A stretch of DNA of 64,000 nt from an uncultured bacterium. Lineage in GTDB: Bacteria; Krumholzibacteriota; Krumholzibacteriia; WVZY01; JAKEHA01. Position numbers and translations under genes: made by a program. The stretch is taken from positions 196,239 through 260,238 of the forward strand of contig CAZPQK010000006.1 in assembly GCA_964588695.1 (NCBI GenBank), in the 5' to 3' direction. The notes beneath the pieces are model-generated. The model was not told the origin of the DNA. It saw nothing but the letters and a program-made list of their open reading frames with translations, and did not search any database. Positions 13,257 through 60,916 of this stretch are shown one piece after another (positions within the stretch are counted from its first letter, which is position 1; each line of letters starts with the position of its first letter).

Positions 13257-13319
13257 AGATTGATCTTAACACGCCGCGCCGGACTTGACAACTCGTTGGG
13301 GTAGAGCGGCTTATGGTCG

Positions 13320-16932: not shown

Positions 16933-17130
16933 ACCTCGCGTCTGGTGTTGGATTCATCCGTTAGTAAACGCCGCAGAACGGCGATCTACCAACAACCAAA
17001 AAGTCGAGTTTAGTGAGCGGTCGCCGCCATCGTCATGTAACATATTGCAAATACGAGCGTTACATGACCGGTCGCTTTTCCGTTGTATGCGGGGCCCCGC
17101 CTCGCTATCCTTTAACCAGATTTTATCGAA

Positions 17131-17182
17131 CCGCGGCGCGCCCCCTTCCTCGACCCGGGGGGCACGCCGCGACTCGTTTTAT
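17131..17182 (+). terminator. GC-rich hairpin plus U-tract in the greA 5' leader (GraL-like attenuator/terminator)
   Basis: Imperfect stem CGCGGCGCGCCCCC...GGGGGGCACGCCGCG followed by ACTCGTTTTATT, about 30 nt upstream of greA. E. coli greA carries an analogous leader terminator that yields the GraL sRNA. Confidence 0.35.
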
Positions 17183-17212
17183 TAGACCGAAACCGAAAAT
17201 GGAGTGATGGGG

Positions 17213-35157: not shown

Positions 35158-37011
35158 TTAGTCCGGGAGTCTCACCAGTAGATCACCGGTGAGGAAAGTC
35201 AATTCCACGCCGTTTTGGGTTCGGGTCCCATTGATGTGATGAAGGTAAATGCTGACGCCGCTGTTTGCGTTCGCAGGTTCGAGTTGCATCTCCGTTGGTG
35301 CCAGTTCATGTTGACGGCTTCCAGCGTCGCTGTCGAGGCGGCGCACTAACGGCGCCACCGGGAACTGGGTGGTACTGCCGTCGGTATTGGTGACCTCTAT
35401 TTCGCCCGCGTCTGGGTTCATACGAACGGTGACGCCTTCAACGGTGGTCTCTTTCTGATCGGCGCTGAGCTCGAACCGATAGAACAGGTCGAAACTGCTT
35501 ACGTCATACGAATGTCCGTGAGGCAGCGACGTAAACGTGAAATGGCTGCCCGGGCTGGTGGCGACACCAGGCTCGCCAACGTTCAGCCAGCTAGCAATTA
35601 AGTCGACCCGTTGTCGACTCTTACGGTAGTTCGCAGTCTCTTGCGAAGTGCCAATGGTATCGATCTCGGCAAGGTTGCCCCTGAACCACGGCTCGATAGA
35701 CCCAGTGCCGTGATTGTTGATGAGGTAACGAAGCACTTCGCGAATCTCGCGCTTGGCGTCGTCGTCGAGGGTTGCCGGGGCCGCCAACGGGTGTGCGACG
35801 CCGTCCGATAGCATGCCGTTGTCCTGCAGGTAGCCAGCGAGCCGGTTGGTTTGAGACCGTTGCGATGTGGCGTATGCGCCCCAGGGACCAAACGACGTTG
35901 CCAGGGCGACAATGCACAACGTCATCGGTATCACTTTGATGTTCTTGTTGCGGCTGAACGTAAAGTAAAGCGCAATCGCTCCCAGCCAAACCGTTAACAC
36001 ACTCAAAAAGTAGCGCGGCTCGGTGATGGCGTACTGCGTGATTCGTTTTCCTACCGCCATACCCAACATGATAATGGCGGGAAAAATTCCAACGTAGAAC
36101 CAGCGAGAGAAGGTCGCAATCCATGACTCGGTGTCGCGAATCGGGTGCACGAGTAGCAGCGACAGGATTCCTGCAGTTGCAACCCAAGATACCAACGGGC
36201 CAATCAGTCCACTTGGCCATTCGCGACTAATCACGACTTTGCCCAAGTAAACGGTGAGAATGATCAGGTACACGATCACAATCGGTACCAGAATGTACTG
36301 GCTGAACACCTTTAACGGATGAGGGTAGTCGGTAGATTTTTCGAGCGCGTCGTAGTCGTTGGGAATACCACCCAGAAAAAACCAGGTGTTGTAAACGAAA
36401 GCAATGATGAAGAAGAGTCGAGGGTACGCCATATCCGACACGTCGATACCCAGCAGTTGGTCGATTGCAAAAAGGGCACCGGCAAGTCCTGCAAACAACA
36501 CCGCAGAATGAATCACCGAAGTTAATAGCCGCAGAAAGAGCGTCTTGTTGAACTGCCAGAATCCGTTGGTGGCCGAAGTATTGACATAGGGCAGAAACGC
36601 AACCGCGAGGTGAGCCGCAAGGTTAAACTGCACCAGGCGAATCCCGGTGGAAGGCGCTAGCCATGGTGGTAATGAAAAATAGTATCCGGTAAGGACGCCG
36701 ATCATTGCGACCTGGCTGCCGATAACCAGCGCCCGCGACCATCGTAATCGCTCGCCAGCCACCGCCAGCGCAATTAGCGCTGGAATCCCAAGTTGGCTGG
36801 CAATGACGCCGTTGATGACTTCGACGTTGGGGTCGTGCTGCGCGGCGCACACGGCAAGGGTCGCTGCGGTAACGGCGGTGGCAATAACGAATGGAAATCG
36901 CGCCGCCGCGGTTCTGGCCTGCTCGAAGGCCCGCGATAGAGAAGGCAATCGCATAGGGCTAGCGTGGCACGAACCCAGGACGTTCGCAACACCAAAGAAG
37001 TGGGGCGCCAT
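35158..37011 (-). CDS. Large polytopic membrane protein with C-terminal extracytoplasmic domain (DUF4153-like), hypothetical
   Basis: More than 10 predicted TM helices, followed by a soluble region of about 200 aa. Confidence 0.55.
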   Translation of the reverse strand: MAPHFFGVANVLGSCHASPMRLPSLSRAFEQARTAAARFPFVIATAVTAATLAVCAAQHDPNVEVINGVIASQLGIPALIALAVAGERLRWSRALVIGSQVAMIGVLTGYYFSLPPWLAPSTGIRLVQFNLAAHLAVAFLPYVNTSATNGFWQFNKTLFLRLLTSVIHSAVLFAGLAGALFAIDQLLGIDVSDMAYPRLFFIIAFVYNTWFFLGGIPNDYDALEKSTDYPHPLKVFSQYILVPIVIVYLIILTVYLGKVVISREWPSGLIGPLVSWVATAGILSLLLVHPIRDTESWIATFSRWFYVGIFPAIIMLGMAVGKRITQYAITEPRYFLSVLTVWLGAIALYFTFSRNKNIKVIPMTLCIVALATSFGPWGAYATSQRSQTNRLAGYLQDNGMLSDGVAHPLAAPATLDDDAKREIREVLRYLINNHGTGSIEPWFRGNLAEIDTIGTSQETANYRKSRQRVDLIASWLNVGEPGVATSPGSHFTFTSLPHGHSYDVSSFDLFYRFELSADQKETTVEGVTVRMNPDAGEIEVTNTDGSTTQFPVAPLVRRLDSDAGSRQHELAPTEMQLEPANANSGVSIYLHHINGTRTQNGVELTFLTGDLLVRLPD

Positions 37012-37066
37012 CGCTTGATGACGCCCCGCTTTTTGCCGTTAGGGTTTCGATACCCTCGAACCGGGG

Positions 37067-37378
37067 GTTATTTCAGCAGTACCATTTTGCGCGTGCGCAC
37101 AAAGTCGCCGGCGACAAGTCGGTAAAAGTACACTCCGCTGGACACCTGGGTGCCGGCGTTGTTGGTACCGTCCCACGTAATCGGCGCGACTTGTGCGGGA
37201 GTTTGCACCTGGTCAACTAACGTCCGCACCAGTTGTCCGCTTACGTTGTAAACCTTCAGTTGCACGTGCGCGCGATTTGCGAGCGAGTAACTGATAGTCG
37301 TCGTCGGGTTGAACGGGTTCGGATAGTTCTGTGTCAGTTCGTTGACCCGAGGTGCGCTCGGCGGCGTCGACACCGGGA
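37067..37378. repeat. 312-bp perfect direct repeat, copy 1 (3' end of T9SS cargo gene A)
   Basis: Identical base-for-base to 40198..40509. Identity breaks sharply at both ends. Confidence 0.9.
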
Positions 37379-40130
37379 CAATGTGCGCAAGGTACATCAT
37401 GACATCGCCTAAGTGGTCAATGTAGTCGGGGATAGGCGCTGGATGGTCGTCGTAAATCGCGCTGGCGGCAAACCCTCCCAATACCACACGAGCCTGGTAC
37501 CCGTTGGGATTGAGCGTCTCTTGGACAGCTACTGCTCCTCCGCCTCCGACGTAACTAGCGACCATCGTCATACTGCCCGGATCGGTGATCACATCAAATC
37601 CACCTTCTCCAGTCCAGGCGTTGGATAAGGTCAGGCAAGCCCCATCGACGTTCATAGAATCGCCATGAAACAACGATCCCGGTGCGCCAAGAATGAGAGG
37701 ATTCAGCGCGATGCCTTCCGCCGTGTGACTTCCCGACGTTCCTCCAAAATCGATGTATTTGTTTTTGAGTTGGCTGGCGCTAATCGACCCAAGAATTTCG
37801 AGGCCGCTGGGAAGCTCATTGCCTAGAAGGTAAAGTCCAACGTTTCCGGTTGCGTTTTCCAGAAAGCTGAACAATATGCCGGTGTCGTCGGTGTCTTCCG
37901 GGTTGCCATCACCGTCGCCCATAATGCGCGCCTGATTTCCAGTACTCCAGACAATACAGTCGTAAGCGGAATTAAGTTGGTTTGCGACGTTTACGACAGT
38001 TCCGCCCAATCGATTGTTGTTGTAGTTGTCTGACCCGCGAACGTCATAGCGATCCACAGTCGGAGAAAGCGCGATGTGGTCAAAGGCGGCGTCGATAACA
38101 GCCTGCTCGCCAAAGGTGTGAGCGCCGTCTACATAGAGCACGTTCGCAGTTCCAGTCGGTAAACAAGTGAACTCGTCCGCGCCCGCCGCGGCCGTGGCAA
38201 AGTCGTCGGTGACACCCGACTCCAAACCCCAATAAGTCACTTCGCCGATCGAGTTGGTTGCGCCAAAGAAAAACTTAACCGTGTCGCCCGGTGTAAACAA
38301 ATTGTCGTTGAGGTCTGCGCAGAACGTTCGGTCCTGGGGGTTGCCCACAATGTTGAATGATGTGTCCATTTGGATCACCGCCCAATCGATACCGCCCGCC
38401 GAGCCCGTACCTTGATACGGCCATCGCGGACCGCCGGACAACGCCGCGCCCGACTTGCCGGCTTGACCCTGCGGACACACCGCCGCGTAAAGAAAAACTG
38501 CGGCCGCCCCGCTTCCGGTAGTTCCCAATCCGTGTTCGGTGTCGAAAACTTCGACGACGACAGAGTCGCCGAACAGAATAGGGTTAAAGGATTGAGAAAT
38601 GTCGGTTCCCATGTCAGCTCGAACCGTTCCCGTGATGGTGCCGTCGCCAGGAAAGCTGTCCTGAAACAGCCTGGCGTCGTTAATGGTCCACTGGGGCCCG
38701 TTGCCGTCGAAGCGGATGATGCTGACGTTGTCGAACATCGGAGCGTGCGAGTGACACGTGCCGGGTCCGAAGGTTCCGCACCAAACATTACATAAGTCGA
38801 CGACGCCGAGAGCAACTTGCACATCCGTGGCGCCCTGCTCAATCAGGTCTCCAATCGGGAACGATTGGCGAGACCAGTCCTTTTGTGCCCCGTAAAAGAC
38901 AAAGCCGTTGTCTTCCCACTGACCGGGACAGCCGTCTACAATCGAGCGCACGTGCCACACCCAGAACACTACGTTTCCTAGCGGGAGATCACGGTACACG
39001 TCAAACTGTAGCTCCATGGATTCGCCGGATCCGATTAGCGGCACGGCTGGCGACCAGATCTCGTTATTTATAAACAACGGGGTGCCGGAAAGCACACCAG
39101 GGCCCTCGGTGCCGAAGGGCACCACTTCCTGGCCGGGAAAATTGTTGCCACCGCAGTCATATACGTAGCCCGAACCTTCGAAGAACCCCCATATACACGA
39201 GATGTTGCTGGTACAAAAGTCTTCGCTGACCGCCTGCGTGCCGGGGAACAGAGACGCGAATGTGCCGAACGCCTGCCGCGATGAAGCTTCCCAATTGTCT
39301 GCCGACATATCGCCAACCGATTCGTCTTCGAAGTCATCAAACGGAAGCCCGGGCCCGACGGTTGCGGTTACTCCGATGTCGTCGACAATAAACGCACCGT
39401 CTGTTTGCCACAGGCCGTCCTGGTCCGACCAAGCCCCATCACTCGTGAAGCGAAAGCGCAGGTCAACCTGTCCGCCGTGTAGCGAGTCCGGGATTGCGAC
39501 GGTAACAGTGTCCGTTCCGAAAAAGCCCCACGCCGCATCGAAATTAAGTGACGTATTGCCAACGCCGAGGTTGATCCAGTTCTCGGCTGGGTCAGTCGCG
39601 TCATCAACTTCCAAAAACGTAAAGTCGTAGCCGGGCTCGGAGTCGTAGTGAATCGCAAACGAGAGCGTTAACCCAGTGCCAACCGCCGGTGATGAGGTTG
39701 TTAGAAATTGCTGCCACCGGTTGCCATAGCCCGGCAATGTCGCGTAACCGCAAAGAACAGGGTCGGCCGGGTTTGGCGCCAAGCCACACCACATTGCTTG
39801 GTTACCACCGGGTGCAAACAGCAACCCGTTGTAGCCGCCGCCGAGTCCTGCGAAGTCATCCACGTGCGTATAGATGCCTTGGGCGGTTAGGTCTTGAGCG
39901 GTCCAACCCTGGGCATCGCATCCTTCGAAATCCCACGAGGCAACCCATGTGGTGTCGGGGGCAGCACGCATTGTTTTACCAAATGGCGATGGGCCGCTGT
40001 CCAACGATCGCACCAACGGTGTCGATGCTTCGCGCGGCGTTCGGGTTTCTTTGGCGCGCAAGTCGTTAGGTTTTGCCACGAAAACGACAAGGCCAACCAT
40101 TGTGGCGCTAAGTACAAGCTTCTTAGTCAT
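37068..40130 (-). CDS. Large secreted T9SS cargo protein (paralog A) with type-A C-terminal sorting domain
   Basis: Start is trimmed to MTKKLVLSATMVGLVVFVAKP (signal peptide); the upstream extension lies in the repeated CTD DNA of the neighbouring gene. C-terminal QNYPNPFNPTTTISYSL...GVYFYRLVAGDFVRTRKMVLLK. Confidence 0.8.
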   Translation of the reverse strand: MTKKLVLSATMVGLVVFVAKPNDLRAKETRTPREASTPLVRSLDSGPSPFGKTMRAAPDTTWVASWDFEGCDAQGWTAQDLTAQGIYTHVDDFAGLGGGYNGLLFAPGGNQAMWCGLAPNPADPVLCGYATLPGYGNRWQQFLTTSSPAVGTGLTLSFAIHYDSEPGYDFTFLEVDDATDPAENWINLGVGNTSLNFDAAWGFFGTDTVTVAIPDSLHGGQVDLRFRFTSDGAWSDQDGLWQTDGAFIVDDIGVTATVGPGLPFDDFEDESVGDMSADNWEASSRQAFGTFASLFPGTQAVSEDFCTSNISCIWGFFEGSGYVYDCGGNNFPGQEVVPFGTEGPGVLSGTPLFINNEIWSPAVPLIGSGESMELQFDVYRDLPLGNVVFWVWHVRSIVDGCPGQWEDNGFVFYGAQKDWSRQSFPIGDLIEQGATDVQVALGVVDLCNVWCGTFGPGTCHSHAPMFDNVSIIRFDGNGPQWTINDARLFQDSFPGDGTITGTVRADMGTDISQSFNPILFGDSVVVEVFDTEHGLGTTGSGAAAVFLYAAVCPQGQAGKSGAALSGGPRWPYQGTGSAGGIDWAVIQMDTSFNIVGNPQDRTFCADLNDNLFTPGDTVKFFFGATNSIGEVTYWGLESGVTDDFATAAAGADEFTCLPTGTANVLYVDGAHTFGEQAVIDAAFDHIALSPTVDRYDVRGSDNYNNNRLGGTVVNVANQLNSAYDCIVWSTGNQARIMGDGDGNPEDTDDTGILFSFLENATGNVGLYLLGNELPSGLEILGSISASQLKNKYIDFGGTSGSHTAEGIALNPLILGAPGSLFHGDSMNVDGACLTLSNAWTGEGGFDVITDPGSMTMVASYVGGGGAVAVQETLNPNGYQARVVLGGFAASAIYDDHPAPIPDYIDHLGDVMMYLAHIVPVSTPPSAPRVNELTQNYPNPFNPTTTISYSLANRAHVQLKVYNVSGQLVRTLVDQVQTPAQVAPITWDGTNNAGTQVSSGVYFYRLVAGDFVRTRKMVLLK

Positions 40131-40197
40131 GCGAACTCCCGGTAAAAAGTTAGCAATGTGACCGTTGCCGTCGCAACAGCCGCTGATGTTCGAGAAT

Positions 40198-40509
40198 GTT
40201 ATTTCAGCAGTACCATTTTGCGCGTGCGCACAAAGTCGCCGGCGACAAGTCGGTAAAAGTACACTCCGCTGGACACCTGGGTGCCGGCGTTGTTGGTACC
40301 GTCCCACGTAATCGGCGCGACTTGTGCGGGAGTTTGCACCTGGTCAACTAACGTCCGCACCAGTTGTCCGCTTACGTTGTAAACCTTCAGTTGCACGTGC
40401 GCGCGATTTGCGAGCGAGTAACTGATAGTCGTCGTCGGGTTGAACGGGTTCGGATAGTTCTGTGTCAGTTCGTTGACCCGAGGTGCGCTCGGCGGCGTCG
40501 ACACCGGGA
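40198..40509. repeat. 312-bp perfect direct repeat, copy 2 (3' end of T9SS cargo gene B)
   Basis: Identical to 37067..37378. Confidence 0.9.
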
Positions 40510-43270
40510 TCGAATGCGACAGGTAGTCCATCACGTCGCGAACGTGGTCGACGTAGTCTGGTGTCGGAGCGGGTTTGTCGTCGACAATATGGCTAATGGC
40601 AAAGCCACCCAACACAGTTCGGACCGGTTGCCCGTTGGGGTTCAGAGTCTCCTGTGTCAATACAGCGCCGTCCGCACCCTCATAGCGTGCGGCCACGACC
40701 GACGCTCCGGTAGCGTCGAGGACGTCAAAGCCTGCGCCCTCCCCCCAGCCCGCGTAAATGTTCAGACAGCTCCCATCGGCCATCAGGGTATCGGGCATGC
40801 CGCCGTGTTCAAAGATGCGCCCCGGCTCGCCGACGATCGTCGGTGACACGGGGAGACTTGTTTCCAGGTGGCTCCCGTCGGTTAGCGAGAAATTAAAATA
40901 CTTGTTTCTTAGCAATGTCGCCGATGCGCCACCGAGAGCGTCGAACGCTTCCGCAAAGTTGTCGCCGACCAGGTAGATGCCCCCTGGATTTGTTGCGTTC
41001 TCCAAGAACTCGTACAACACCTGCGTGTCATTGGTCTTTTCCGGGTTGCCGGTTCCATCGCCGAATCCGCGGTTGATGGTTCCGGTGCTCCACACGATGC
41101 AGTCGTACACCGAGTTGAGCTGCGCGGCGACATCGGAGATGTGGTAACCCAGGCGGTTATCGTTGTAGCCGTCGGACCCGCGAACGTCAAAGCGGTCGTA
41201 GGCAACGTGCGCAATGCCCGGCTCCAGGAACGGTTGGTCGCCGAAGGTGTGATCGCCGTCTACGTACAGCACCGACGCGTTGCCGGAAGGCAGGCAGGTC
41301 ACTTCGTCCGAGCCAAGCGCCGCGATCATCATGTCATCGGTCGTTCCCGATTCGATCCCCCAATAGGTGCGCTGACCTTCGGTGTTCTCTGCGCCGAAGA
41401 AAAACTTCACTTCGTCACCGGGCGTGAACAGGTTGTCGTTGAGGTCGACACAATACACGTCGGACAGCGCGCCGGTCCGGCTCGCGCTGTTGGTGAAAGC
41501 GGTGTCGACGCGCAGACACGTCCATTCTTCCGAGTCAATGGTCACGGTGCCGACGACCGGAAAGCGGAAGCTGTCTTGCGTCATAGCGCTGCCCGACTTG
41601 GGGGCTTGGGCGGGTTCCACCCGAGCGTACAAGTAAACGGCGGGGCCAAACCCGGTAAATGGGTCGCCCGCAAGCGCGTGCTCTTCGTCGGACACCGCAA
41701 CAACCGCCGAGTCGCCCAGCAGGATATTGGGACTGCTGCCGGACAGGATGTCGGCGCCCATGTCCATGCGGACCACACCGGTGGTTGTACCGTCGTCGGC
41801 GAAGCTATCCTGAAACAGAGTGCGGTCGGTGATTCTCCACTGCGGACCGTTACCGTCGAACCGAATGATGGACACGTTGTCGAACAGCGGACCAAAACTA
41901 TGACATGCACCGGTGCCGTAGATACCGCACCACGCGAAACACATGTCGATCACGCCCAGGCGGACTTGAACTTCGGCTGGCGTTGGAATTAACAAGTCGC
42001 CCACAGGTTGAACGTGACGACGCCACCGTGGGTTGGGGCCGTAGTACACAAAGTTGCGGTCGAGCCAAGGCATCGGGCAGAACCCGTTCCGTCCACGAAC
42101 CGACCAGGTAAAGAAAATGAGGTTGGTGAGTGGTAAGTCTTCGTAGACATCGAAGTGGAGTTCCCAGGACGCGCCGGCACCTGCGACGGTCACCCACGGC
42201 GAAACCAGTTCCTGATCGATGCCCGGTTCGAACGCGGGCGCAAACGGCACCACTTCTTGTGCCGGAAAGTTGTTTCCGCCGCACGTATAAAAGCTTCCCG
42301 AGCCCGCAAAGAATCCCCACATGCAGGAGATATTGCTGACGCAGTCGTCTTGAAACGGAGTCGATAGTGCGGGGAAGAGTGTTGAGAAGTCTCCAAAGCC
42401 AGGGTCGGCGGAGCCTTCCCAATCGTCGGCTACGGTGCTACCGACGGCCTCGCCTTCGAAGTCTTCCAGCGCAAGACCGGCGCCCGCGGCGGCGGTAACT
42501 TCGATGTCGTCGACGATGAATGCGCCGTCGGTGTCCCATAGCCCGTCTTCGTCGGACCATGCCCCGTCGCTAGTAAACTTAAAGTGCAGGTTCACCGCTC
42601 CGCCGTGCACCGAGTCGGGAATCGAAACGCTAATGGTGTCGGTACCCGTTCCTTCCCACGCCATACTCGGATGGGGGGAGATTGGTGTTGTGCCGACACC
42701 AAGGTTGATCCAGTTTTCGGATCCGTCGGTTGCGTCGTCGAACTCCAGGACGGTACGGTCGTACCCGGGTTCCGAGTCCCAGTGGAACGCAAACGACACG
42801 GTAAGCCCGGTGCCGCTGGCCGGGGATGACGTCGACAAATACTGCTCCCACCGATTGCCGTAACCCGGTAATGACGCGTAGCTGCAAATATACAGATCGG
42901 AGGTGTCGGGTCGTGCGCCACACCACATTGCCTGGTTGCCGTTAGGGGCTACCAGCAGACCGTTGATGCCACCGCCGAGGCCGGCGAAATCGTCGATGTG
43001 CGTGAAGATAGCGTAAGGTGCGGAGTTGTCTACCACCGTCCATCCTTGCGCGTCGCATCCTTCAAAGTCCCAAGAACCAATAACGGTGGTGTCAGGCATG
43101 GCCCGCCGCGCGGCCGGCAGCGGCGAGCTGTCCAACGATCGCTTTAGCCACGTTGGGGTTTCCTTTGGCGTGCGGACTTCTTTTGCAAGCGGTGCGTTCG
43201 ATGCACAAACGATCGTAAACACGATAACGGCAAACGCCATCGCAGCTACGGAACTACGACCGGGAATCAT
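40199..43270 (-). CDS. Large secreted T9SS cargo protein (paralog B) with identical C-terminal sorting domain
   Basis: Signal peptide MIPGRSSVAAMAFAVIVFTIVCASNA. Colinear with paralog A (both start WDFEGCDAQGWT...) at roughly 60-70% identity, but the last 103 codons are nucleotide-identical. Confidence 0.8.
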   Translation of the reverse strand: MIPGRSSVAAMAFAVIVFTIVCASNAPLAKEVRTPKETPTWLKRSLDSSPLPAARRAMPDTTVIGSWDFEGCDAQGWTVVDNSAPYAIFTHIDDFAGLGGGINGLLVAPNGNQAMWCGARPDTSDLYICSYASLPGYGNRWEQYLSTSSPASGTGLTVSFAFHWDSEPGYDRTVLEFDDATDGSENWINLGVGTTPISPHPSMAWEGTGTDTISVSIPDSVHGGAVNLHFKFTSDGAWSDEDGLWDTDGAFIVDDIEVTAAAGAGLALEDFEGEAVGSTVADDWEGSADPGFGDFSTLFPALSTPFQDDCVSNISCMWGFFAGSGSFYTCGGNNFPAQEVVPFAPAFEPGIDQELVSPWVTVAGAGASWELHFDVYEDLPLTNLIFFTWSVRGRNGFCPMPWLDRNFVYYGPNPRWRRHVQPVGDLLIPTPAEVQVRLGVIDMCFAWCGIYGTGACHSFGPLFDNVSIIRFDGNGPQWRITDRTLFQDSFADDGTTTGVVRMDMGADILSGSSPNILLGDSAVVAVSDEEHALAGDPFTGFGPAVYLYARVEPAQAPKSGSAMTQDSFRFPVVGTVTIDSEEWTCLRVDTAFTNSASRTGALSDVYCVDLNDNLFTPGDEVKFFFGAENTEGQRTYWGIESGTTDDMMIAALGSDEVTCLPSGNASVLYVDGDHTFGDQPFLEPGIAHVAYDRFDVRGSDGYNDNRLGYHISDVAAQLNSVYDCIVWSTGTINRGFGDGTGNPEKTNDTQVLYEFLENATNPGGIYLVGDNFAEAFDALGGASATLLRNKYFNFSLTDGSHLETSLPVSPTIVGEPGRIFEHGGMPDTLMADGSCLNIYAGWGEGAGFDVLDATGASVVAARYEGADGAVLTQETLNPNGQPVRTVLGGFAISHIVDDKPAPTPDYVDHVRDVMDYLSHSIPVSTPPSAPRVNELTQNYPNPFNPTTTISYSLANRAHVQLKVYNVSGQLVRTLVDQVQTPAQVAPITWDGTNNAGTQVSSGVYFYRLVAGDFVRTRKMVLLK

Positions 43271-43486: not shown

Positions 43487-44098
43487 ATGGTAACCAAGCG
43501 CAACCCAGATTTGACCCGCGAGAAGCTGCTAACTGCAGCTTTTCAAGAGATTTACGCTCATGGGTATCGGTCTGCCAGCCTCGACGGGATCATTTCTGCT
43601 GCCGGTGTGACCAAGGGCGCGCTGTACCACCATTTTGCCAACACGCAGGCTTTGGGCTATGCGGTGCTCGAAGAAGTAATTCGTCAGCATGTGGTCGACG
43701 AGTGGATTCGTCCGATGGCGACCAGCGACGACCCGGTGGGACGAATCTTTGAACTCATGCAGGGCAAGTGCGAAAACATGTCCACCGATGAGCTGATCAA
43801 CGGTTGTCCGCTGAACAACCTGGCCCAGGAGATGGCCGGTGTGGACGAAGGATTTCGCGAGCGCGTCATGAAACTCTTCGAGTTGTGGCACAGCGGCTTT
43901 GCGGACGCGTTTCGGCGCGGTCAGAAGGCGGGTACGGTTCGCGCCGACGTTAATCCCGACGCGGTTGCGGCCCACATTCTGGCGACGTTCGAAGGCGCGC
44001 TAAGTATGGCGAAGGTGACTCGCAACGTTAGCACCGTCGTACAGCACTGCGAGAGTATGGTTGCCTACCTGGAAAGTATACGCATCGTTAAGAATTAG
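43487..44098 (+). CDS. TetR/AcrR-family transcriptional regulator
   Basis: N-terminal HTH (TREKLLTAAFQEIYAHGYRSASLDGIISAAGVTKGALYHHF). Confidence 0.85.
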   Translation: MVTKRNPDLTREKLLTAAFQEIYAHGYRSASLDGIISAAGVTKGALYHHFANTQALGYAVLEEVIRQHVVDEWIRPMATSDDPVGRIFELMQGKCENMSTDELINGCPLNNLAQEMAGVDEGFRERVMKLFELWHSGFADAFRRGQKAGTVRADVNPDAVAAHILATFEGALSMAKVTRNVSTVVQHCESMVAYLESIRIVKN

Positions 44099-44145
44099 GG
44101 GGACGGTCAGCGCGGACAGGGGTTCGTGTTTGGGCCGCTTTCCTC

Positions 44146-44165
44146 AACATACCAGTTAGTATGTT
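44146..44165. promoter_or_regulatory. Inverted repeat AACATAC-cagtta-GTATGTT between tetR and the MMPL gene (candidate TetR operator)
   Basis: 7-bp perfect dyad in the 130-bp tetR-mmpL intergenic region. Confidence 0.4.
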
Positions 44166-44228
44166 TTTGCTTACAAATAAGTTACCTATCATTCCCCATT
44201 ATTCCTCTAACCCAGCCGGGAGACAGTA

Positions 44229-46586
44229 ATGAGCCAGCCAAGCCAGGGAGGATGGGTGGTCGGCTACACGCGGTGGCTGATCAAGTGGAAGTATCTGGTG
44301 ATACCCCTCTGCTTGATCGTCGCATTGGCCGCGGGTAGTGGCGCCCGATTTTTAGCCTTTGACACCGACTATCGTGCGTTCTTTAGCGAAGAGAACCCGC
44401 AGTTGTTGGCGTTTGAAGCGCTTCAGAACATTTACACCAAGAACGACAACGTTATGTTCATGGTGGAGACCAAGGATGGGAAGATCTTCACCAAAGAGCA
44501 TCTTGCCGCCATCGAAGAGTTAACCGAAGAAGCGTGGCAGGTGCCGTTCACCATTCGCGTCGACGCTATTACCAACTTCCAGAACACAACCGCCAGCGAA
44601 GACGATCTGCTGGTTGAGGATTTGGTGGAAGACGCGATGAACCTGAGTGCCGCGCAAATCGAAAACGCCAAGCAAGTCGCGCTGGCCGAGCCGGTGATCG
44701 TGAACCGGTTGTTGTCCAATCGCGCGCATGTTGCCGGCGTTAACGCCACGTTGCAACTTCCCGGCGATGATATTAATGAAGTCCCAGAGGCAGTTGCGTA
44801 CGCGCGCGACCTCGAAAAGCGAATCGAAGCGAAGTATCCCGACATAAATGTGCGGCTTAGCGGCGTGGTTATGCTCAATAACGCATTTTCCGAAGCCGGT
44901 ATGAAGGACATGTCCACACTGAACCCGATCATGTATGCGGGTATGTTCCTGGTGATGCTGATTCTGCTTCGGTCGTTGATGGGGTCGATTGCTACTATGA
45001 TCGTGGTCGCGTTTTCGACAGTAACGGCGATGGGTCTTGCCGGATACTACGGCATCAAGCTGACACCTCCGTCGGTAACGGCGCCTACTATGATCATGAC
45101 CCTTGCGATTGCCGACAGTATCCACGTGCTGGTGACGATGTTAACCGAGATGCGCGGCGGTCGAACCAAGTACGACGCGATCGTCGAGTCGATGCGCATC
45201 AATATGACGCCGGTGTTCCTGACCAGTGTCACCACCGCGATTGGTTTTCTTAGTCTTAACTTTTCCGATGCTCCGCCGTTTCGCGACCTGGGAAACATCA
45301 CTGCCACCGGTGTGATGGCGGCGTTTGTTTTTTCTGTCGTCCTGTTGCCCGCGCTGGTCGCCGCATTGCCGGTTCGTGCCAAGGCTCTCGCTGGCCGGGG
45401 CGCCAGCCCGATCGAACGCTTCGCCGAATTTGTGATCAGCAAGCGCAAGCCTCTGCTTTGGGCTTCGGTGGTGACGGTAGTCGCGTTGGCTGCGTTTATT
45501 CCCTCGAACGAGCTTAACGACCAGTTTGTCGAATACTTTGACGAGCGAATCGAGTTTCGTCGGGACAGCGACTTTATGGCGGAGAACCTGACCGGAATTT
45601 ACCAGGTGGAGTACTCGATCACTGCCGACGGAGAAAATGGAATCAGTGATCCCGGGTATCTGGCAAAGTTGGAAGAGTTCAGCAATTGGTTTCGTCAGCA
45701 AGACGGTGTTTTACACGTAGCCACGTTCACCGACGTCATGAAGCGGTTGAACAAGACGTTGCACGGCGACGACCCCTCGTGGTATCGCGTGCCTGACAAT
45801 CGCGAGTTAGCAGCGCAGTACCTGCTGCTTTACGAACTGTCGTTGCCGTTTGGGTTGGACCTTAACAACCAGATCAACATCGACAAGTCAGCCACTAGAT
45901 TTTCGGCCACCCTGGCCAACGTGTCGTCCAACGAAATTCGTGCGATTGGCGATGCTGGGCAGGCGTGGCTCCGGACCAACGCGCCTGCGCACATGGACGC
46001 GGTTCCCGCTGGGCCCGCGTACATGTTTTCGCACATTTCTAAGCGAAACATCATTAGCATGGTGTCCGGAACCACCGCGGCGCTAATCTTGATTTCGTTG
46101 CTGCTGATATTTGCGCTACGGAGTTTCAAGTACGGCGCGATCAGTTTGATTCCCAACCTGGTCCCGGCCGTGCTGGCGTTTGGCTTGTGGGGACTTCTGG
46201 TTGGGAAGGTCGGCGTCGGTTTGTCGGTGGTAACGGGTATGACGCTTGGGATTGTTGTCGACGATTCGATTCACTTCTTAAGCAAGTATATCCGCGCGCG
46301 CCGGGAAAAGGGACTAAGCGCTCCCGACGCGGTTCGTTACGCCTTTCGCACCGTAGGTGTGGCGTTGACGGTGACGACGATTATTCTGGTCGCGGGCTTC
46401 CTGGTACTGTCGCAGTCTTCGTTCGAAATGAATTCCGGTATGGGTCGCCTGACCGCCATCGCCATCTTTCTGGCGCTGGTCGCCGACTTCGTTCTTTTAC
46501 CGCCGGTGCTGATTGCCATCGACGGACGCAAATCCAAAACTTCGACTCAGGAGGTAAGTAATGAAGCAGCAGTCGGTACAGCATAG
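44229..46586 (+). CDS. RND-superfamily exporter, MMPL/HpnN-like (12 TM, two periplasmic loops)
   Basis: 785 aa. Two 6-TM bundles each preceded by a large periplasmic domain. SSD-like segments (PIMYAGMFLVMLILLRSLMGS...). Confidence 0.75.
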   Translation: MSQPSQGGWVVGYTRWLIKWKYLVIPLCLIVALAAGSGARFLAFDTDYRAFFSEENPQLLAFEALQNIYTKNDNVMFMVETKDGKIFTKEHLAAIEELTEEAWQVPFTIRVDAITNFQNTTASEDDLLVEDLVEDAMNLSAAQIENAKQVALAEPVIVNRLLSNRAHVAGVNATLQLPGDDINEVPEAVAYARDLEKRIEAKYPDINVRLSGVVMLNNAFSEAGMKDMSTLNPIMYAGMFLVMLILLRSLMGSIATMIVVAFSTVTAMGLAGYYGIKLTPPSVTAPTMIMTLAIADSIHVLVTMLTEMRGGRTKYDAIVESMRINMTPVFLTSVTTAIGFLSLNFSDAPPFRDLGNITATGVMAAFVFSVVLLPALVAALPVRAKALAGRGASPIERFAEFVISKRKPLLWASVVTVVALAAFIPSNELNDQFVEYFDERIEFRRDSDFMAENLTGIYQVEYSITADGENGISDPGYLAKLEEFSNWFRQQDGVLHVATFTDVMKRLNKTLHGDDPSWYRVPDNRELAAQYLLLYELSLPFGLDLNNQINIDKSATRFSATLANVSSNEIRAIGDAGQAWLRTNAPAHMDAVPAGPAYMFSHISKRNIISMVSGTTAALILISLLLIFALRSFKYGAISLIPNLVPAVLAFGLWGLLVGKVGVGLSVVTGMTLGIVVDDSIHFLSKYIRARREKGLSAPDAVRYAFRTVGVALTVTTIILVAGFLVLSQSSFEMNSGMGRLTAIAIFLALVADFVLLPPVLIAIDGRKSKTSTQEVSNEAAVGTA

Positions 46587-47412
46587 TCGCCCGCGAGCGC
46601 TTGCCATTGCCCGCGACGGCGACGTCTGGCGCGCGGTAGCAGTGTTGATGGTGTTTGTGTTGATGATCTTTGCCGCCCGCGCGATCGGACAGACGCCGGA
46701 GGAACGCGGGTTGGAAATCGCCAAACTGGTTGACGCCGCCGACGAAGGCTTTGGCGACAACTCGTCGGAGATGGTGATGATTCTGCGCAACCGTCACGGC
46801 CAGGAAGACACCCGCAAAATCCGCAACCGCACGCTGGAGGTTAAAGGCGACGGCGACAAGACAATGGTGATTTTCGACACTCCGCACGACGTAAAGGGGA
46901 CGGCGTTCCTTAGTTTTACGCACAAGGAAGGCGACGACGACCAGTGGTTGTACTTGCCGGCCTTAAAGCGGGTTAAGCGGATCTCGTCTTCCAACAAGTC
47001 GGGCCCGTTTATGGGCAGCGAGTTTGCCTACGAAGACATCGCGTCGCAAGAGATCGAAAAGTACACCTATAAGTACATTCGTGACGAAGAAGTAGGTGGA
47101 GAACCGTGTCACGTTGTCGAGCGTTACCCGGTAGATAAGAAGTCCGGGTACACCAAAATCGTTTCGTGGATTCACGCCAATCATTATCGCTTGGAAAAGG
47201 CGGAGTTTTACGACAAACGCGGTGCTCATCTCAAAACTCTGGAAACGAAGGGGTACCAGCAGTACAAGGACAAGTTCTGGCGCGCCGACGAGTTCCATAT
47301 GACCAACCATATCACGGGTAAGAGCACGTCGCTCGTGTGGGAAAACTATGAGTTTCAAACCGGGCTAACCGATCGTGACTTCGACAAAAACAGTCTCGCG
47401 CGAGCCCGCTAG
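46561..47412 (+). CDS. LolA-like outer-membrane lipoprotein-sorting/carrier protein, accessory to the MMPL exporter
   Basis: Signal peptide. About 280 aa. The family commonly follows MMPL/RND exporter genes. Overlaps the mmpL stop (coupled). Confidence 0.55.
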   Translation: MKQQSVQHSRPRALAIARDGDVWRAVAVLMVFVLMIFAARAIGQTPEERGLEIAKLVDAADEGFGDNSSEMVMILRNRHGQEDTRKIRNRTLEVKGDGDKTMVIFDTPHDVKGTAFLSFTHKEGDDDQWLYLPALKRVKRISSSNKSGPFMGSEFAYEDIASQEIEKYTYKYIRDEEVGGEPCHVVERYPVDKKSGYTKIVSWIHANHYRLEKAEFYDKRGAHLKTLETKGYQQYKDKFWRADEFHMTNHITGKSTSLVWENYEFQTGLTDRDFDKNSLARAR

Positions 47413-47423
47413 AAAGGATTGAT

Positions 47424-48668
47424 GTGCTGACTCGGCTGACTATGTTGGTGATGGCGGTGGTCGCGATCGTCGCCACCCCGGTTTCTGCAGATGTGTACCA
47501 GGAACTGCGAGGATCGTTTCTTGTTGAGACCCGCTACTTTGTCGACGACCCAATCGATCCGTCCCAGCAGTTTACCGGCGGGACGGCGTCGATTGCGTTT
47601 GCGCCCGAGTGGTTTGTGGAGTGGGATGACGGTAATCAGCGAATCGTGGCGTCTTTGTTTGGTCGCTACGACGGAGACGATCCTCAACGAACGCATGCGG
47701 ACATCCGCGAGTTGTACTATGAGCGAGTGTCGCGCGTGGTCGAGTTTCGTGCCGGGCTTCGCAAAGTGTTCTGGGGTGTAGCCGAAACCCAACACCTGGC
47801 TGACTTTCTGAACCAGACCGATCTGGTGGAGAGCTTTGACGGAGAAGACAAGCTTGGGCAACCCATGGTGGATGTGTCGCTGGTTTCCGACTTTGGTGTG
47901 CTGAAGCTATTCGCCATGCCGTACTTTCGTGAGCGTACGTTTCCCGGACGTCGCGGCCGGCTACGCCCACCACTCCGGGTCGATACCGACAACCCAATCT
48001 ATGAGTCTTCGGACGAGGAAACTCACTTTGATTGGGCTGCTCGATACTCGCATTATTTTAGTATCTTCGACATTGGTGTTGCTCACTTTTCGGGAACGTC
48101 GCGCGATCCTGGCTTCGTTCCAATCGCTGGCGGAGAGGTCCTGCCCGAACCAGGCCCGTTGATTGACGTGGCTGCTCCGGAAGCGTTGCGTCCGTACTAC
48201 CCACTGATCGACCGAACATCGATCGACGTTCAAGCCACAACCGGGTCGGCACTGTGGAAGCTGGAAGTTGTCAGCGCGGAGGTCCAGGACCAGCGTTACA
48301 CGGCGGCGGTGGGCGGACTCGAGTATACGTTCTTTACCATTCTTGGATCGGGCGCGGATCTCGGTGTCCTGGTTGAATACCACGCGGATGATCGCGATGA
48401 CTTTCGCGCCGTGGGCTTTCAGAACGATGTTTTTGTAGGCGCACGCCTGGCGCTAAACGATTCGCAGGACACCGCGTTGCTCGGCGGCGTTATCGAAGAC
48501 CTCGACGTGTCTAGCCGGCTGAGTTTTGTCGAAGCCAGTCGCCGGATTAACAACAACCTAAAAGCCGAACTCGAGTATCGCGGATTCCACGACATTGACC
48601 AACGTGACGCATTGGCCGGGTTTGCGCAAGATAGCTACGTGCAGTTTGGGTTGGGTTTTTATTTTTAA
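47424..48668 (+). CDS. Outer-membrane beta-barrel protein (DUF1302-like) of the MMPL export module
   Basis: Signal peptide MLTRLTMLVMAVVAIVATPVSA. Amphipathic beta-strand periodicity. C-terminal GLGFYF. Confidence 0.6.
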   Translation: MLTRLTMLVMAVVAIVATPVSADVYQELRGSFLVETRYFVDDPIDPSQQFTGGTASIAFAPEWFVEWDDGNQRIVASLFGRYDGDDPQRTHADIRELYYERVSRVVEFRAGLRKVFWGVAETQHLADFLNQTDLVESFDGEDKLGQPMVDVSLVSDFGVLKLFAMPYFRERTFPGRRGRLRPPLRVDTDNPIYESSDEETHFDWAARYSHYFSIFDIGVAHFSGTSRDPGFVPIAGGEVLPEPGPLIDVAAPEALRPYYPLIDRTSIDVQATTGSALWKLEVVSAEVQDQRYTAAVGGLEYTFFTILGSGADLGVLVEYHADDRDDFRAVGFQNDVFVGARLALNDSQDTALLGGVIEDLDVSSRLSFVEASRRINNNLKAELEYRGFHDIDQRDALAGFAQDSYVQFGLGFYF

Positions 48669-48706: not shown

Positions 48707-48744
48707 GAGCGGAACGGGTTAGAGGGGCTCGTTCCGCTTTTTGC
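48707..48744 (+). terminator. Rho-independent terminator after the MMPL operon
   Basis: Stem AGCGGAACG...CGTTCCGCT followed by TTTTT. Confidence 0.6.
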
Positions 48745-49586
48745 TATTCGGGTGGTGTGGGCAGTTGCTTGACGTGCAAGTCGAGCTGCGGGTAGGCGAT
48801 GGTGACGCCCGCATCCTTCAGTGCAAACCAGACCGTTTCGTTGAGAACCGACTTGGTCACAAGTCCTCGGCGGGCTTCTTCTATCCAAATGAACACGTTC
48901 CAGTTCACCGACGAATCGGCAAATTCCTGCATCAGCACCAGCGGCTCCCGCGCGGGAAACGTAAGTTCTTTGCCAACCTTTTCCAGTACTTCGCGAACCA
49001 GCTTCATATCGGAATCGTAGGAAACGCCGACTGTGGTACCGACGCGAAGTTGCGTGTCGCGGAGTGTGTAGTTACGCACACTTGAGGTCACCAATGTAGA
49101 GTTGGGAATAATCACGTCGGTGTCGTTGGGTGCGCGGACAATTGTTGCGCGAATCCCCATGTTAGTGACACGAACGATTTCGCCGTTGTACTCCAGCAGA
49201 TCGCCAAGTTTGATGGAGCGCTCTCCAATCATAATGAGTCCGGCCACCAGATTTTGAACGATGTTTTGTGTCGCGAAGCCGACAGCTACGGCGACCAGCG
49301 CGCCAGCGGTGAATAGTCGCGAGATTGGAATTCCAAAAATATTGATGGCAATGAGCAATCCAACGGTGGTGCTCAGGTAGCGCACGACGCGCCCCAACAT
49401 GATCGCCGAGTTGTTCTGGCTGCCGTCACGGTGGCGCCAGGAACGAACAATAAATTTGCTCAACCAGATACCGCCCAGCCAGCCAGCCATAAGAGCGACA
49501 ATCGCCGAGCCCAGGCGGATGGGCGTGATATCCACACCGGAGATGGTCACCAAGGACTCCTGCAGCGTGCTAAGCAACTCCTGCAC
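48744..49586 (-). CDS. Mechanosensitive ion channel, MscS family
   Basis: Three TM helices, then the conserved MscS beta-domain (GDLLEYNGEIVRVTNMGIRATIVRAPNDTDVIIPNS). Confidence 0.8.
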   Translation of the reverse strand: MQELLSTLQESLVTISGVDITPIRLGSAIVALMAGWLGGIWLSKFIVRSWRHRDGSQNNSAIMLGRVVRYLSTTVGLLIAINIFGIPISRLFTAGALVAVAVGFATQNIVQNLVAGLIMIGERSIKLGDLLEYNGEIVRVTNMGIRATIVRAPNDTDVIIPNSTLVTSSVRNYTLRDTQLRVGTTVGVSYDSDMKLVREVLEKVGKELTFPAREPLVLMQEFADSSVNWNVFIWIEEARRGLVTKSVLNETVWFALKDAGVTIAYPQLDLHVKQLPTPPE

Positions 49587-53398: not shown

Positions 53399-54283
53399 AT
53401 GGATAGGTTGATTGAGTTGATGAACGTCGAACTGATTGTCACCGAGATGGTGGCGTTCCTGCCGCGATTGGGGATAGGAATTGTCATCCTGTTTTTGTTT
53501 TATGCGCTGTTCCGACTCACCCGTGCGCCGCTAAAAGGGCTGCTAAACCGAATGAATTTGGACCCGGTGTTGACCACCTTGCTGGTGGATCGCATCTATC
53601 GCGCGGTGCTGGTGATCTTTGGGCTGGTGATGGCCGCTAGCCAGGTTGGTATTAACGTTACCGCCGCGCTTACCGGCCTGGGGGTCGCGGGTATCGCCAT
53701 TGGTTTTGCAGCGCAGGACATCCTGGCCAACATCATTGCGGGGTTTGTCATCTTCATGGACAAGCCGTTTAAGGTCGGTGACTTCATCACTGTCGACGAA
53801 CAGTACGGCGACGTGCGCGACATAACGCTGCGCTCCACCCGCATTCGAACCCGCCGCAATACCTACGTCGTGATTCCCAATAAGGTGATCATCGATGCGG
53901 TGCTGGAAAACCATTCCAAACACGGCCACACGCGAATCGATATCCCTGTCGGGATTGCGTATAAGGAAGACATCGCGCAAGCCCGTGAAGTATTGATGCA
54001 AGCTACCGAGTCAATCGACAAGGTGCTGAAGCGACCGGCTACGCAGATTGCCATGGTGGAGTTGGGCGATTCGAGCGTGAACTTGCAGGTTCGCGTTTGG
54101 ATCGAAAACGCCGCCGACGAGATGGACGTTACCGTACGCACGCTGGAAGCATGCAAGGTCGCGCTGGACAACGCAGATATTCAGATTCCGTTTCCGCATC
54201 TACAGTTGTTTATGGACGACATCGAAGACCGCGCGCTCGACAAGATGGCGAAGCTGCCGCGAATGGCACGCGAAGCGTCGTAG
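53399..54283 (+). CDS. Mechanosensitive ion channel, MscS family (second paralog)
   Basis: TM helices, then GDFITVDEQYGDVRDITLRSTRIRTRRNTYVVIPN MscS core. Confidence 0.8.
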   Translation: MDRLIELMNVELIVTEMVAFLPRLGIGIVILFLFYALFRLTRAPLKGLLNRMNLDPVLTTLLVDRIYRAVLVIFGLVMAASQVGINVTAALTGLGVAGIAIGFAAQDILANIIAGFVIFMDKPFKVGDFITVDEQYGDVRDITLRSTRIRTRRNTYVVIPNKVIIDAVLENHSKHGHTRIDIPVGIAYKEDIAQAREVLMQATESIDKVLKRPATQIAMVELGDSSVNLQVRVWIENAADEMDVTVRTLEACKVALDNADIQIPFPHLQLFMDDIEDRALDKMAKLPRMAREAS

Positions 54284-55966: not shown

Positions 55967-56335
55967 ATGAGGGGATACATGATTACCTCCACAACCAGCG
56001 ATGCTGCCGCCATGGAGACGATTGGGAAGCGACTGGCCCGCTACCGACTAAACCGGAACCTCACCCAAAAGCAGCTGGCGCGCGAGGCCGGCGTGTCGGT
56101 GCCGACGGTCCAACGATTGGAGGCCGGGAACTCCGTGCAACTGGACACATTAATCGGTGTGCTCCGCGCGCTCGACCTGCTGGCCAATCTGGAGGCGATG
56201 GTGCCGGAGCCGCCGGTGAGTCCGCTGCAACAACTCGAGTTGGATGGCAAACGGCGGCAACGCGGAACCGGCAGTCGTGGTCGCAAAGAACAGTCGAAGG
56301 AAGACACCCCGTGGACGTGGGGCGATGAGTCATGA
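55967..56335 (+). CDS. hipB: HipB-like XRE-family HTH antitoxin
   Basis: HTH LTQKQLAREAGVSVPTVQRLEAG. An alternative start at 55979 has a GAGGGG RBS. Overlaps the hipA start by 4 nt. Confidence 0.75.
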   Translation: MRGYMITSTTSDAAAMETIGKRLARYRLNRNLTQKQLAREAGVSVPTVQRLEAGNSVQLDTLIGVLRALDLLANLEAMVPEPPVSPLQQLELDGKRRQRGTGSRGRKEQSKEDTPWTWGDES

Positions 56336-57630
56336 CGGTCGCAAGTGTACGACTTTGGGGGCGCACTATTGGTGCGGTCAGTTGGGATGCTGATCGGCGA
56401 CTGGGCAACTTCGAATACGTGGATGCCTTTCAGCGAAGCGGGATCCAAGTCGCGCCGCTAACAATGCCACTCTCGGACCAGATCTTCTCGTTTCCGGCGT
56501 TGGCTCCGGAGACCTTTCGCGGCTTACCGGGTCTGCTTGCCGACTCGCTCCCCGACAAGTTTGGTAATGCTGTTATCGATGCATGGCTCGCGCGCGAAGG
56601 CAAAGACATCGGCGCGTTTACGCCGGTCGAACGGCTGTGTTACGTGGGAACTCGCGGTATGGGCGCGCTTGAGTTTGAGCCCGCCTTGGGTCCGCCGCGT
56701 GACGACGACGCATTGCTGGAAGTGGCGTCGTTGGTCGAGCTGGCCGGTGAGATTCTCGCCGAGCGCGAAGGGTTGCAAGCATCTTTCGACGAGCCGGATC
56801 GCGAGCAGGCGCTGCGTGATATTCTAAGTGTGGGAACTTCGGCCGGCGGCGCACGCGCCAAGGCTATTATCGCGTGGAACCCCGACACCAACGAGGTTCG
56901 CTCAGGACAGGTAGCAGCGCGCCCGGGTTTTGCCCATTGGTTGTTGAAATTCGACGGAGTGCATGGCGACCGCGACCGCGAACTGGATGTGCCCCGTGGC
57001 TACGGCCAGATCGAGTATGCCTATTACTTGATGGCGAAAGCCGCTGGCGTGGAGATGAGCGAGTGTCGATTGTTAACCGAAGGGAATCGTCGTCACTTTA
57101 TGACTCGCCGCTTCGACCGCACCAAAGGCGGAGAGAAAGTTCACATGCAGACGCTAGGCGCGCTGGCTCATTTCGATTTCAATCGTGCCAATGCCTATGC
57201 CTACGAGCAAGTGTTTCAACTGATGCGACGGCTGTCGCTGCCGGTGGAGCAGATCGAGCAGATGTTTGTGCGAATGGTTTTTAATGTGATCGCGCGCAAT
57301 CAGGACGACCACGTTAAGAACGTAGCGTTTCTTATGGACAAGGCCGGGCGTTGGCGGCTATCGCCAGCTTACGACGTGACGTTTGCCTATAACCCCAACG
57401 GACCATGGACTGCGCAGCACCAGCTGAGTCTTAACGGTAAGCGTGACGACTTTGCCGTGACCGACCTGGAAGCGGTCGCCGACTTTGCCTCACTACGGCG
57501 AGGTTTCGCCCGGGATACGTTGGAGCGGGTTCAAGAGGCGACGGAGCGCTGGCCGGACTTCGCCGACCAGGCGGCGGTGACGTCAAAGTTTCGCGGCGAA
57601 ATCGGAAAGTCAATTCGCCGGCTGGTGTGA
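56332..57630 (+). CDS. hipA: HipA-family serine/threonine kinase toxin
   Basis: HipA N-terminal coupling region (LWGRTIGAVSWD) and C-terminal kinase core (ARNQDDHVKNVAFL...LSPAYDV). Confidence 0.8.
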   Translation: MTVASVRLWGRTIGAVSWDADRRLGNFEYVDAFQRSGIQVAPLTMPLSDQIFSFPALAPETFRGLPGLLADSLPDKFGNAVIDAWLAREGKDIGAFTPVERLCYVGTRGMGALEFEPALGPPRDDDALLEVASLVELAGEILAEREGLQASFDEPDREQALRDILSVGTSAGGARAKAIIAWNPDTNEVRSGQVAARPGFAHWLLKFDGVHGDRDRELDVPRGYGQIEYAYYLMAKAAGVEMSECRLLTEGNRRHFMTRRFDRTKGGEKVHMQTLGALAHFDFNRANAYAYEQVFQLMRRLSLPVEQIEQMFVRMVFNVIARNQDDHVKNVAFLMDKAGRWRLSPAYDVTFAYNPNGPWTAQHQLSLNGKRDDFAVTDLEAVADFASLRRGFARDTLERVQEATERWPDFADQAAVTSKFRGEIGKSIRRLV

Positions 57631-60800: not shown

Positions 60801-60916
60801 AGCCGCCGGGCAACTATCGGGTGACGTACTCGCCGCGACTTGCAAGTGGTGTCTACTTCTTGCGGATGGAATCTGCGAGTGGCGCGATTACCCGAAAGAT
60901 CCATTTACTCAAGTAG
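57803..60916 (+). CDS. Large secreted BNR(Asp-box) + FG-GAP/VCBS-repeat beta-propeller protein with T9SS C-terminal sorting domain
   Basis: Signal peptide. Asp-box SSDGGESWT. At least five FG-GAP-like repeats (EVDGDPEKEIVF, IGDVDNDGEMEIV, ADLDSDGDLEIVIP, IGDIDNDGRNEVV). C-terminal VYPNPFNPTTNVSY...GVYFLRM...IHLLK. Confidence 0.8.
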   Translation: MSKRRWARAACSFLVLATTLLTTTSVWGDSTTGRPVKHYDSPTRIVDGTPRTVTVSPEQEAALRAHVVRYRPDHPLLARNHKRPAGDGSARGRELSSTPGLESAPLQRPGFPDLYHSTAKGDEGPQRSLTSVLDEAGMLVDAGGDDVEVASTENTAPLLAITSGGEYLLAVRNVSSVAVYKSSDGGESWTLWSTFSDASGLLFGAAMTIGEGTNNRIFLAYTNTTGDDQVHVAYADFTVASPTWVVVTALANAGVDHGKFGRLSIDTDYENFTSYYVYVAALGDDGNGDDIWFARSTDRGGSYAPGYRVLDSATSSYDSFDSPYIAFGAGNYVHLGANADYTTTGTVTDVIHARALGWAGSGLASWEAPTVISAGTVSADHLLGSLGADTNFGTVVFAMTNFDGSPFRDWVSVSTNYGTAFGGLVESGLDNSPGKIVFSTSGDIVMAGVEVGEYWPPFNQVQLVRSTLAAPTTFTAPATYTRTIWDAGTLPRVYGLALDPTRGEQPAIAWTASVDPDYTVRFDAEWRRDPGYANTEVGFPLAVTGGGHTPPAIAEVDGDPEKEIVFATISGDVHVVNHDGTTVPGWPVNIGQIAFDTPVAVGDLIGNGNNTIAVGNGFGEVYAFNGDGAVLPGFPVQLDDTNFVHVSIGALGPPNRRYIVAMAGHDIKVLNYQGINMAPALGDFVNNAIGPAAIGDVDNDGEMEIVTSRNNWFHVLTRSGGVKSFRNVFGEQVTGPPALADLDSDGDLEIVIPSVDGSGSRMYVMNHDLTDYPGFPAVIASGASLTSASLANIISGGEPEIIFAERDGSGNVHMFRSDGTEPSWFPVNVGPSFIFTPPAIDIVHQFPSQIVTATRANVGYSYTNFGVDSPGWPRNLNGVIEETPAIGDIDNDGRNEVVMLGANELRVLDTGAAPHGSDVYSWRMFQNDAARTGCWNCEDVITAVGDAPSPRTDERLDVYPNPFNPTTNVSYQVAAEGKVRVALYDVKGRQVDVLVDGVVQPPGNYRVTYSPRLASGVYFLRMESASGAITRKIHLLK

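Follow-up and report, generated by a model that had tools for sequence, protein, structure and literature searches.

The 64,000-nucleotide stretch analysed here (positions 196,239 to 260,238 of contig CAZPQK010000006.1 from an uncultured Krumholzibacteriota bacterium, referred to as the window) carries on its reverse strand two adjacent genes for large proteins ending in a sorting domain of the type IX secretion system (T9SS), and these genes share an exactly identical 3' end within otherwise widely diverged sequence. The upstream paralog, gene B (40199..43270, - strand), encodes 1,023 amino acids and consists, by its open reading frame (ORF) and translation, of a signal-like N-terminus, a body of about 920 residues, a linker and a type A C-terminal sorting domain (CTD). 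The downstream paralog, gene A (37068..40130, - strand), encodes 1,020 amino acids with the same architecture. The original prediction, made from this sequence, described two colinear tandem paralogs of about 1020 residues, and this description holds. The GC content of genes A and B is 56.7% and 59.6%, respectively, and that of the window is 57.3%.

Gene B starts at an ATG with AGGGAG 6 nt upstream. Mechanical ORF calling starts gene A at a GTG at 40307, giving a protein of 1,079 residues that reaches back into the CTD region of gene B in another frame; we preferred the ATG at 40130, which has GGGAG in front of it and lines up with the start of gene B. Gene callers may thus mis-start gene A within the gene B CTD (40131-40307, - strand). 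Between the gene B stop and the gene A start lies a non-homologous spacer (40131..40197, - strand; 68 nt to the stop codon, with base 40198 already belonging to the shared 3' end), which contains the GGGAG ribosome-binding site of gene A and in which no terminator-like hairpin was found. A strong terminator-like hairpin of 11 pairs (8 G-C) lies about 40 nt past the gene A stop (37002..37027, - strand), where transcription of a B-A unit would probably end; its presence after gene A, together with the lack of such a hairpin in the spacer, suggests that the two genes are co-transcribed.

A direct-repeat scan with base-by-base extension found an exact match of 312 nt, at an offset of 3131, between 37067..37378 in gene A and 40198..40509 in gene B (both - strand). 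Both borders of this tract are abrupt, with a mismatch at the first flanking base on either side, as had been claimed. The tract opens with the final two bases of codon 918, continues through codons 919-1020 and the TAA stop codon, and ends 1 nt past the stop. Because it begins five residues after the last helix (residues 902-913) of the preceding alpha/beta domain in a structural model of gene A (see below), its content is the inter-domain linker (residues 919 to about 935), the sorting domain (residues 936-1020) and the stop. The two copies are direct repeats, at the 3' ends of head-to-tail paralogs, and they are the only copies of the segment in the window, which otherwise holds short weak matches to it in two other CTD genes. 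With zero differences in 312 nt, divergence in the tract is below about 1% at 95% confidence. We dismissed chance as an explanation because the probability of 312 straight matches is 10^-69 at a background identity of 60%, and 10^-30 even at 80%.

The portion of the tract that encodes the C-terminus is a T9SS type A sorting domain in both genes (gene A residues 936-1017, 37080..37325, - strand; gene B residues 939-1020, 40211..40456, - strand), as originally proposed, with matches in both Pfam and NCBIfam that pass the curated cut-offs: TIGR04183 (T9SS type A sorting domain) at 40.5 and 40.8 bits against a cut-off of 23, PF13860 (FlgD_ig) at 39.9 bits against 27, and PF18962 at a marginal 27.5 bits against 27. 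The match ends three residues short of the stop codon, which is the extreme C-terminal location characteristic of T9SS cargo, and the domain is modelled by AlphaFold2 as a beta-sandwich (strands 944-946, 954-961, 967-976, 984-986, 999-1007 and 1010-1018). At the other end of the proteins, the N-termini of A and B are hydrophobic, their first 25 residues reaching Kyte-Doolittle means of 2.6 and 2.8 over 15-residue stretches. A match to NF052323 (T9SS-dependent M6-like inactivated metalloprotease) was rejected: it reaches 28.7 bits against a cut-off of 600, and it covers the CTD only. The CTD motif NxPNPFNPxT is ubiquitous, and a scan of contigs drew mostly unrelated CTD proteins. A CTD-only protein search returned short fragments at no more than 71% identity and missed A and B themselves, and it is therefore uninformative on other identical CTDs. 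The two other CTD genes of the window have CTDs 45% (7669-8202, - strand) and 40% (57803-60916, + strand) identical to that of A and B. The first encodes a 177-residue protein with little beyond its T9SS CTD, and many similar short CTD-only proteins or fragments occur in metagenomes; the second is a third large T9SS-CTD protein of the window (1,037 residues), with FG-GAP/beta-propeller repeats.

We compared the two genes inside and outside the tract using a protein-guided codon alignment. Outside the tract, A and B are identical at 58% of amino acids, 60% of nucleotides and 40% of third positions, whereas inside it all three values are 100%; the 60-70% protein identity first estimated was slightly generous, because the whole proteins are 62% identical and the bodies fall just below that range. 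In steps of 20 codons from the stop backwards, identity runs 100/100/100/100/100 and then 70/63/60/50. A comparison of synonymous divergence on either side of the border had also been proposed with the original prediction. At four-fold degenerate sites in codons for the same amino acid, 89 of 270 (0.33) are identical in the body and 60 of 60 in the last 100 codons (Fisher p = 5e-25), so that the bodies are anciently diverged, with synonymous sites effectively saturated, and the tract is young. Synonymous homogenisation is thus confined to the tract, and the overall picture, a near-identical tract with sharp borders inside otherwise diverged colinear paralogs, is the one characteristic of gene conversion. 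As a control for the general behaviour of the domain, we took 150 random pairs of family genes, the two members of each coming from different loci; their four-fold identity was 0.43 for the tail and 0.39 for the body, indicating that protein constraint or codon bias is not the cause of the synonymous identity of the CTDs.

The same pattern, partly decayed, is found in independent assemblies of relatives. Among the 120 best homologues (P0001-P0120), we compared those pairs that probably lie on one contig. The pair P0081/P0097 is 99% identical in the last 100 residues and 51% in the body, and P0071/P0082 is 98% identical in the last 100 residues and 60% in the body; the remaining probable same-contig pairs exhibit only the general CTD conservation of the family. 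The DNA encoding P0071/P0082 (locus L001) places the two copies 6.7 kb apart, with AraC-type regulators and a T2SSE ATPase between them; the last ~300 nt are 92-94% identical as compared with 61-76% upstream, the elevated stretch being ~330 nt long and similarity ending at the stop. This locus (6707-17310) contains five or six AraC-family (HTH_18) paralogs of ~396 residues, along with a T2SSE/MshEN ATPase, around and between the two family genes. A body-only alignment scan of metagenomes gave 79 loci, and 13 sources (L001 and the window included) have two or three family genes, with the copies directly adjacent head-to-tail in 10 of the 13. At least four other loci have a significant excess of four-fold identity in the tail over the body: L094 (0.79 versus 0.39, p 1e-6), L001 (0.76 versus 0.38, p 2e-7), L130 (0.74 versus 0.46, p 4e-4) and L116 (0.68 versus 0.43, p 4e-3). 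Nucleotide identity drops in the bin 100-120 codons from the stop in every pair examined, and the drop in protein identity for P0081/P0097 lies one bin further upstream (120-140 residues). Between these lineages the bodies have reached saturation, and the events in relatives are therefore independent and of differing ages, that of the window being the youngest. In pairs whose conversion signal is not strong, a number of the longest exact matches (23-34 nt) fall at ~260 nt from the stop, where the DNA encodes QNYPNPFNPTT.

We consider that a recent, non-reciprocal gene conversion over the sorting-domain end, between old tandem duplicates, best accounts for the A/B locus, and we assign this explanation, which is also that of the original prediction, a probability of roughly 0.8. 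In the model that we infer, B and A would descend from an old tandem duplication, the gene concerned encoding a large secreted or surface protein with a putative signal peptide, carbohydrate-binding module (CBM)/MAM-like beta-sandwiches, a class I glutamine amidotransferase (GATase1)-like domain, a linker and a T9SS type A CTD. A recent homologous recombination event of the RecA type would have placed the last ~310 bp of one copy (linker, CTD and stop codon) on the other, with no reciprocal exchange. Its starting point would presumably have been the CTD-coding DNA, where nucleotide conservation is highest in the gene, and heteroduplex extension would have halted upstream where identity falls to ~60% and downstream where homology ends at the stop codon; the small size and sharp edges of the tract would follow from the need of strand exchange for sufficient similarity between the copies. 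The homogenised segment would in turn be a better substrate for recombination, and the CTD could thereby enter concerted evolution while the bodies continue to diverge. The 312-bp direct repeat would also permit RecA-type deletion or amplification of the 3131-bp unit. The locus had been described as prone to deletion and inversion; the first part of that expectation stands, extended to amplification, and the risk of inversion is rejected because the repeats are direct. A further proposition, that the linker and CTD form a self-contained recombination module across the family of more than 600 members, re-synchronised at the same junction and kept by selection for identical T9SS recognition and cleavage as opposed to arising as a neutral by-product, is one that we regard as speculative and rather unlikely.

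Several observations weigh against gene conversion as we describe it. The A and B proteins are found on a single NCBI contig, and neither the presence of two copies nor their exact identity is confirmed by an independent assembly; an identity of about 95-99% could have been raised to 100% by bubble-popping or polishing. Components of the T9SS machinery (PorU/PorV/SprA/GldKLMN) were not seen among the window ORFs scanned. Finally, most of the other co-resident pairs in relatives are without a significant tail excess, and conversion in the family is accordingly episodic, not constant.

The first of these points leads to the alternative of an assembly artefact, in which the CTD segments truly differ, or share only ~90-97% identity, and graph simplification or polishing erased the differences; at the extreme, there would be no second copy at all. 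The source looks metagenome-assembled (the closest homologues are proteins of metagenome-assembled genomes [MAGs]), A and B are each found on one contig only, and an exact repeat of 312 bp exceeds the usual k-mer size, so that the repeat had to be resolved in assembly. All four flanks of the repeat are nevertheless unique sequence, and the only linear path that includes both bodies is B-repeat-spacer-A-repeat-downstream; moreover, independent assemblies of the family as a rule carry tandem copies, and other assemblies keep CTD pairs of 88-93% identity distinct, with the border at the same position. Smoothing could account for a final few percent of identity, but a rise from ~60% to ~100% is beyond it, and we consider an artefact improbable. 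The original prediction had itself offered another possibility, the cassette-like exchange of modules, by which a foreign or variable N-terminal body would have been joined to a constant resident CTD. Such an exchange fits the position of the border at a domain boundary, five residues past the last helix of the preceding domain, and modular domain rearrangement is known in the T9SS cargo of Porphyromonas gingivalis (PMC5266723). It does not fit the bodies, which are colinear, similar in GC content to each other and to the window, and each other's closest relatives over their whole length (about 60% identity versus at most 50% for others), nor the only 40-45% identity of the window's other CTDs; scans of the window found neither inverted repeats flanking the tract nor mobile-element genes. 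We therefore set this part of the prediction aside as very unlikely.

Identity could also be kept by selection on the nucleotides themselves, for example if the segment contained an RNA, a regulatory element or a second, overlapping gene, and the mechanical ORF of gene A (from the GTG at 40307) does overlap the CTD region of gene B in another frame. This overlapping extension exists only upstream of gene A, however, and not at gene A's own CTD; the tract has no Rfam match and an ordinary folding energy (z = -0.32); and family genes at different loci have no synonymous conservation in the tail (0.43 versus 0.39 in the control described above). The full identity includes the non-conserved linker, which is the signature of copying, and selection of this kind is in our estimation highly improbable. 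The reverse history, in which a recent duplication of the whole gene was followed by very fast adaptive divergence of the bodies with the CTD left unchanged, can draw on the fact that surface proteins are able to evolve fast. Protein-level selection cannot, however, saturate the four-fold sites of the body (0.33 identical), which leaves this history with a probability close to nil. Unequal crossover was likewise rejected as the origin of the tract: its product would be either a deletion or an additional, third copy, and it cannot generate two distinct bodies that carry one CTD.

There is ample precedent for partial concerted evolution among paralogous surface proteins, and the mechanism proposed for A and B is an ordinary one. 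In the pilE/pilS system of Neisseria and at vlsE of Borrelia, the variable part of the gene is converted from silent promoterless cassettes and the constant part is kept. These systems resemble A/B in that gene conversion acts between linked paralogous surface-protein sequences, and they differ in that both A and B are complete genes and the constant sorting domain is the part that is converted. The nearest analogue of the A/B tract is the RgpA/Kgp/HagA group of P. gingivalis, T9SS cargo paralogs among which rearrangement and gene conversion have led to common adhesin modules and a conserved CTD (PMC5266723); by comparison, A and B are adjacent, their family lacks sequence similarity to gingipains, and they share only the linker and sorting domain. 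The tufA/tufB genes of Salmonella and Escherichia coli provide a model system in which homology sets the limits of conversion tracts (PMC5485169), and they are like A/B in undergoing non-reciprocal recombination between duplicates with tracts so bounded. The tuf copies are nearly identical throughout and far apart, whereas A and B are homogenised over ~10% of the gene and saturated over the rest. Long-lasting, recurrent concerted evolution of prokaryotic paralogs was described by Wang & Chen in 2018 (PMC6053082); as in their cases, co-resident paralogs of the A/B family are closer to each other than to orthologues, repeatedly and in separate lineages, but here the process is confined to one domain of the gene and is episodic, most of the lineages surveyed being without a current signal. 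What the present analysis adds is that conversion recurs across an uncharacterised family, always at a fixed domain junction, together with a predicted architecture for that family. The A/B pair is a clean instance of partial-gene concerted evolution, in which a secretion and anchoring signal is kept in step between functionally diverging paralogs. In practical terms, the perfect 312-bp direct repeat marks a spot where short-read assemblies can break or collapse and where the genome can delete or amplify a 3.1-kb unit.

A database search placed A and B in a family of more than 600 proteins of ~1020 residues with the same architecture, the few named ones of which come from Krumholzibacteria and Latescibacteria MAGs; within it, A and B are mutual best matches (about 60%), the next best standing at 50%. 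The bodies of ~917 residues (37380-40130 and 40511-43270, - strand) have no Pfam, NCBIfam or Protein Data Bank (PDB) sequence match in scans that included 14 family members one by one, the NCBIfam matches being confined to the CTD, and the analysis thus flags a large and widespread cargo family whose body belongs to no Pfam family. The AlphaFold2 model of gene A, built with 114 homologues, is confident, with a predicted local distance difference test score (pLDDT) of 88.5 and a predicted template modelling score (pTM) of 0.79. It places a disordered segment behind the hydrophobic N-terminus, followed by a beta-sandwich region of several jelly-roll domains (residues ~58-640; 38211..39959, - strand); look-alikes of these sandwiches include CBM22/CBM61/CBM16, MAM and ephrin-receptor domains, InhA2 accessory domains and the K1 adhesin domain of gingipain. 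Searched as a whole, the protein gave only beta-sandwich matches with low template modelling scores in Foldseek. Next comes an alpha/beta domain (residues ~650-915; 37386..38183, - strand) with a predicted class I glutamine-amidotransferase-like (ThuA-like) fold, recognised by its structural match to GATase1-like proteins, and the model closes with a low-confidence linker and the CTD beta-sandwich (944-1018).

Within the GATase1-like domain, a nearly invariant Cys832 (consensus AYGGCP.INDFDV; gene A residues ~825-840, ~37611-37658) sits between a strand and a helix in a nucleophile-elbow-like arrangement, and His802 and His906 are also nearly invariant; to judge from the model, this region could be a putative cysteine-hydrolase site. 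Further motifs conserved in the body are HVDDFAGLGGG, LPGYGN.W.Q, SDGAWSD.DG and CHSHAP. The most defensible description of A and B is as predicted secreted or surface-anchored binding proteins, for which a catalytic assignment is not possible.

The neighbourhood of the two genes is ordinary chromosome, encoding a TetR regulator, an MMPL/RND exporter and a LolA-like protein, as well as DUF4153, GDH, GreA and TrhO. Divergent from gene B (43487-48668, + strand) lie the TetR gene, the exporter gene (MMPL/HAE3-type RND, with HpnN-like matches below cut-off), the LolA-like gene and a 414-residue ORF of no assigned function; this group resembles an export cluster for lipids or hydrophobes. Two paralogous mechanosensitive channels of the MscS type (48744-49586, - strand, and 53399-54283, + strand) are found within 5 kb of each other, the first adjoined by a CorA gene, and a HipA-like toxin kinase (HipA_C + Couple_hipA; 56332-57630, + strand) is encoded directly upstream of the FG-GAP CTD protein. 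Elsewhere in the window there are a FemAB-family protein of the XrtA/PEP-CTERM-associated type (9928-10983, - strand; 158.9 bits, below the cut-off of 260) and a histidine kinase with weak PrsK-like similarity (14165-16243, + strand), which together may hint at a second protein-sorting system in this genome.

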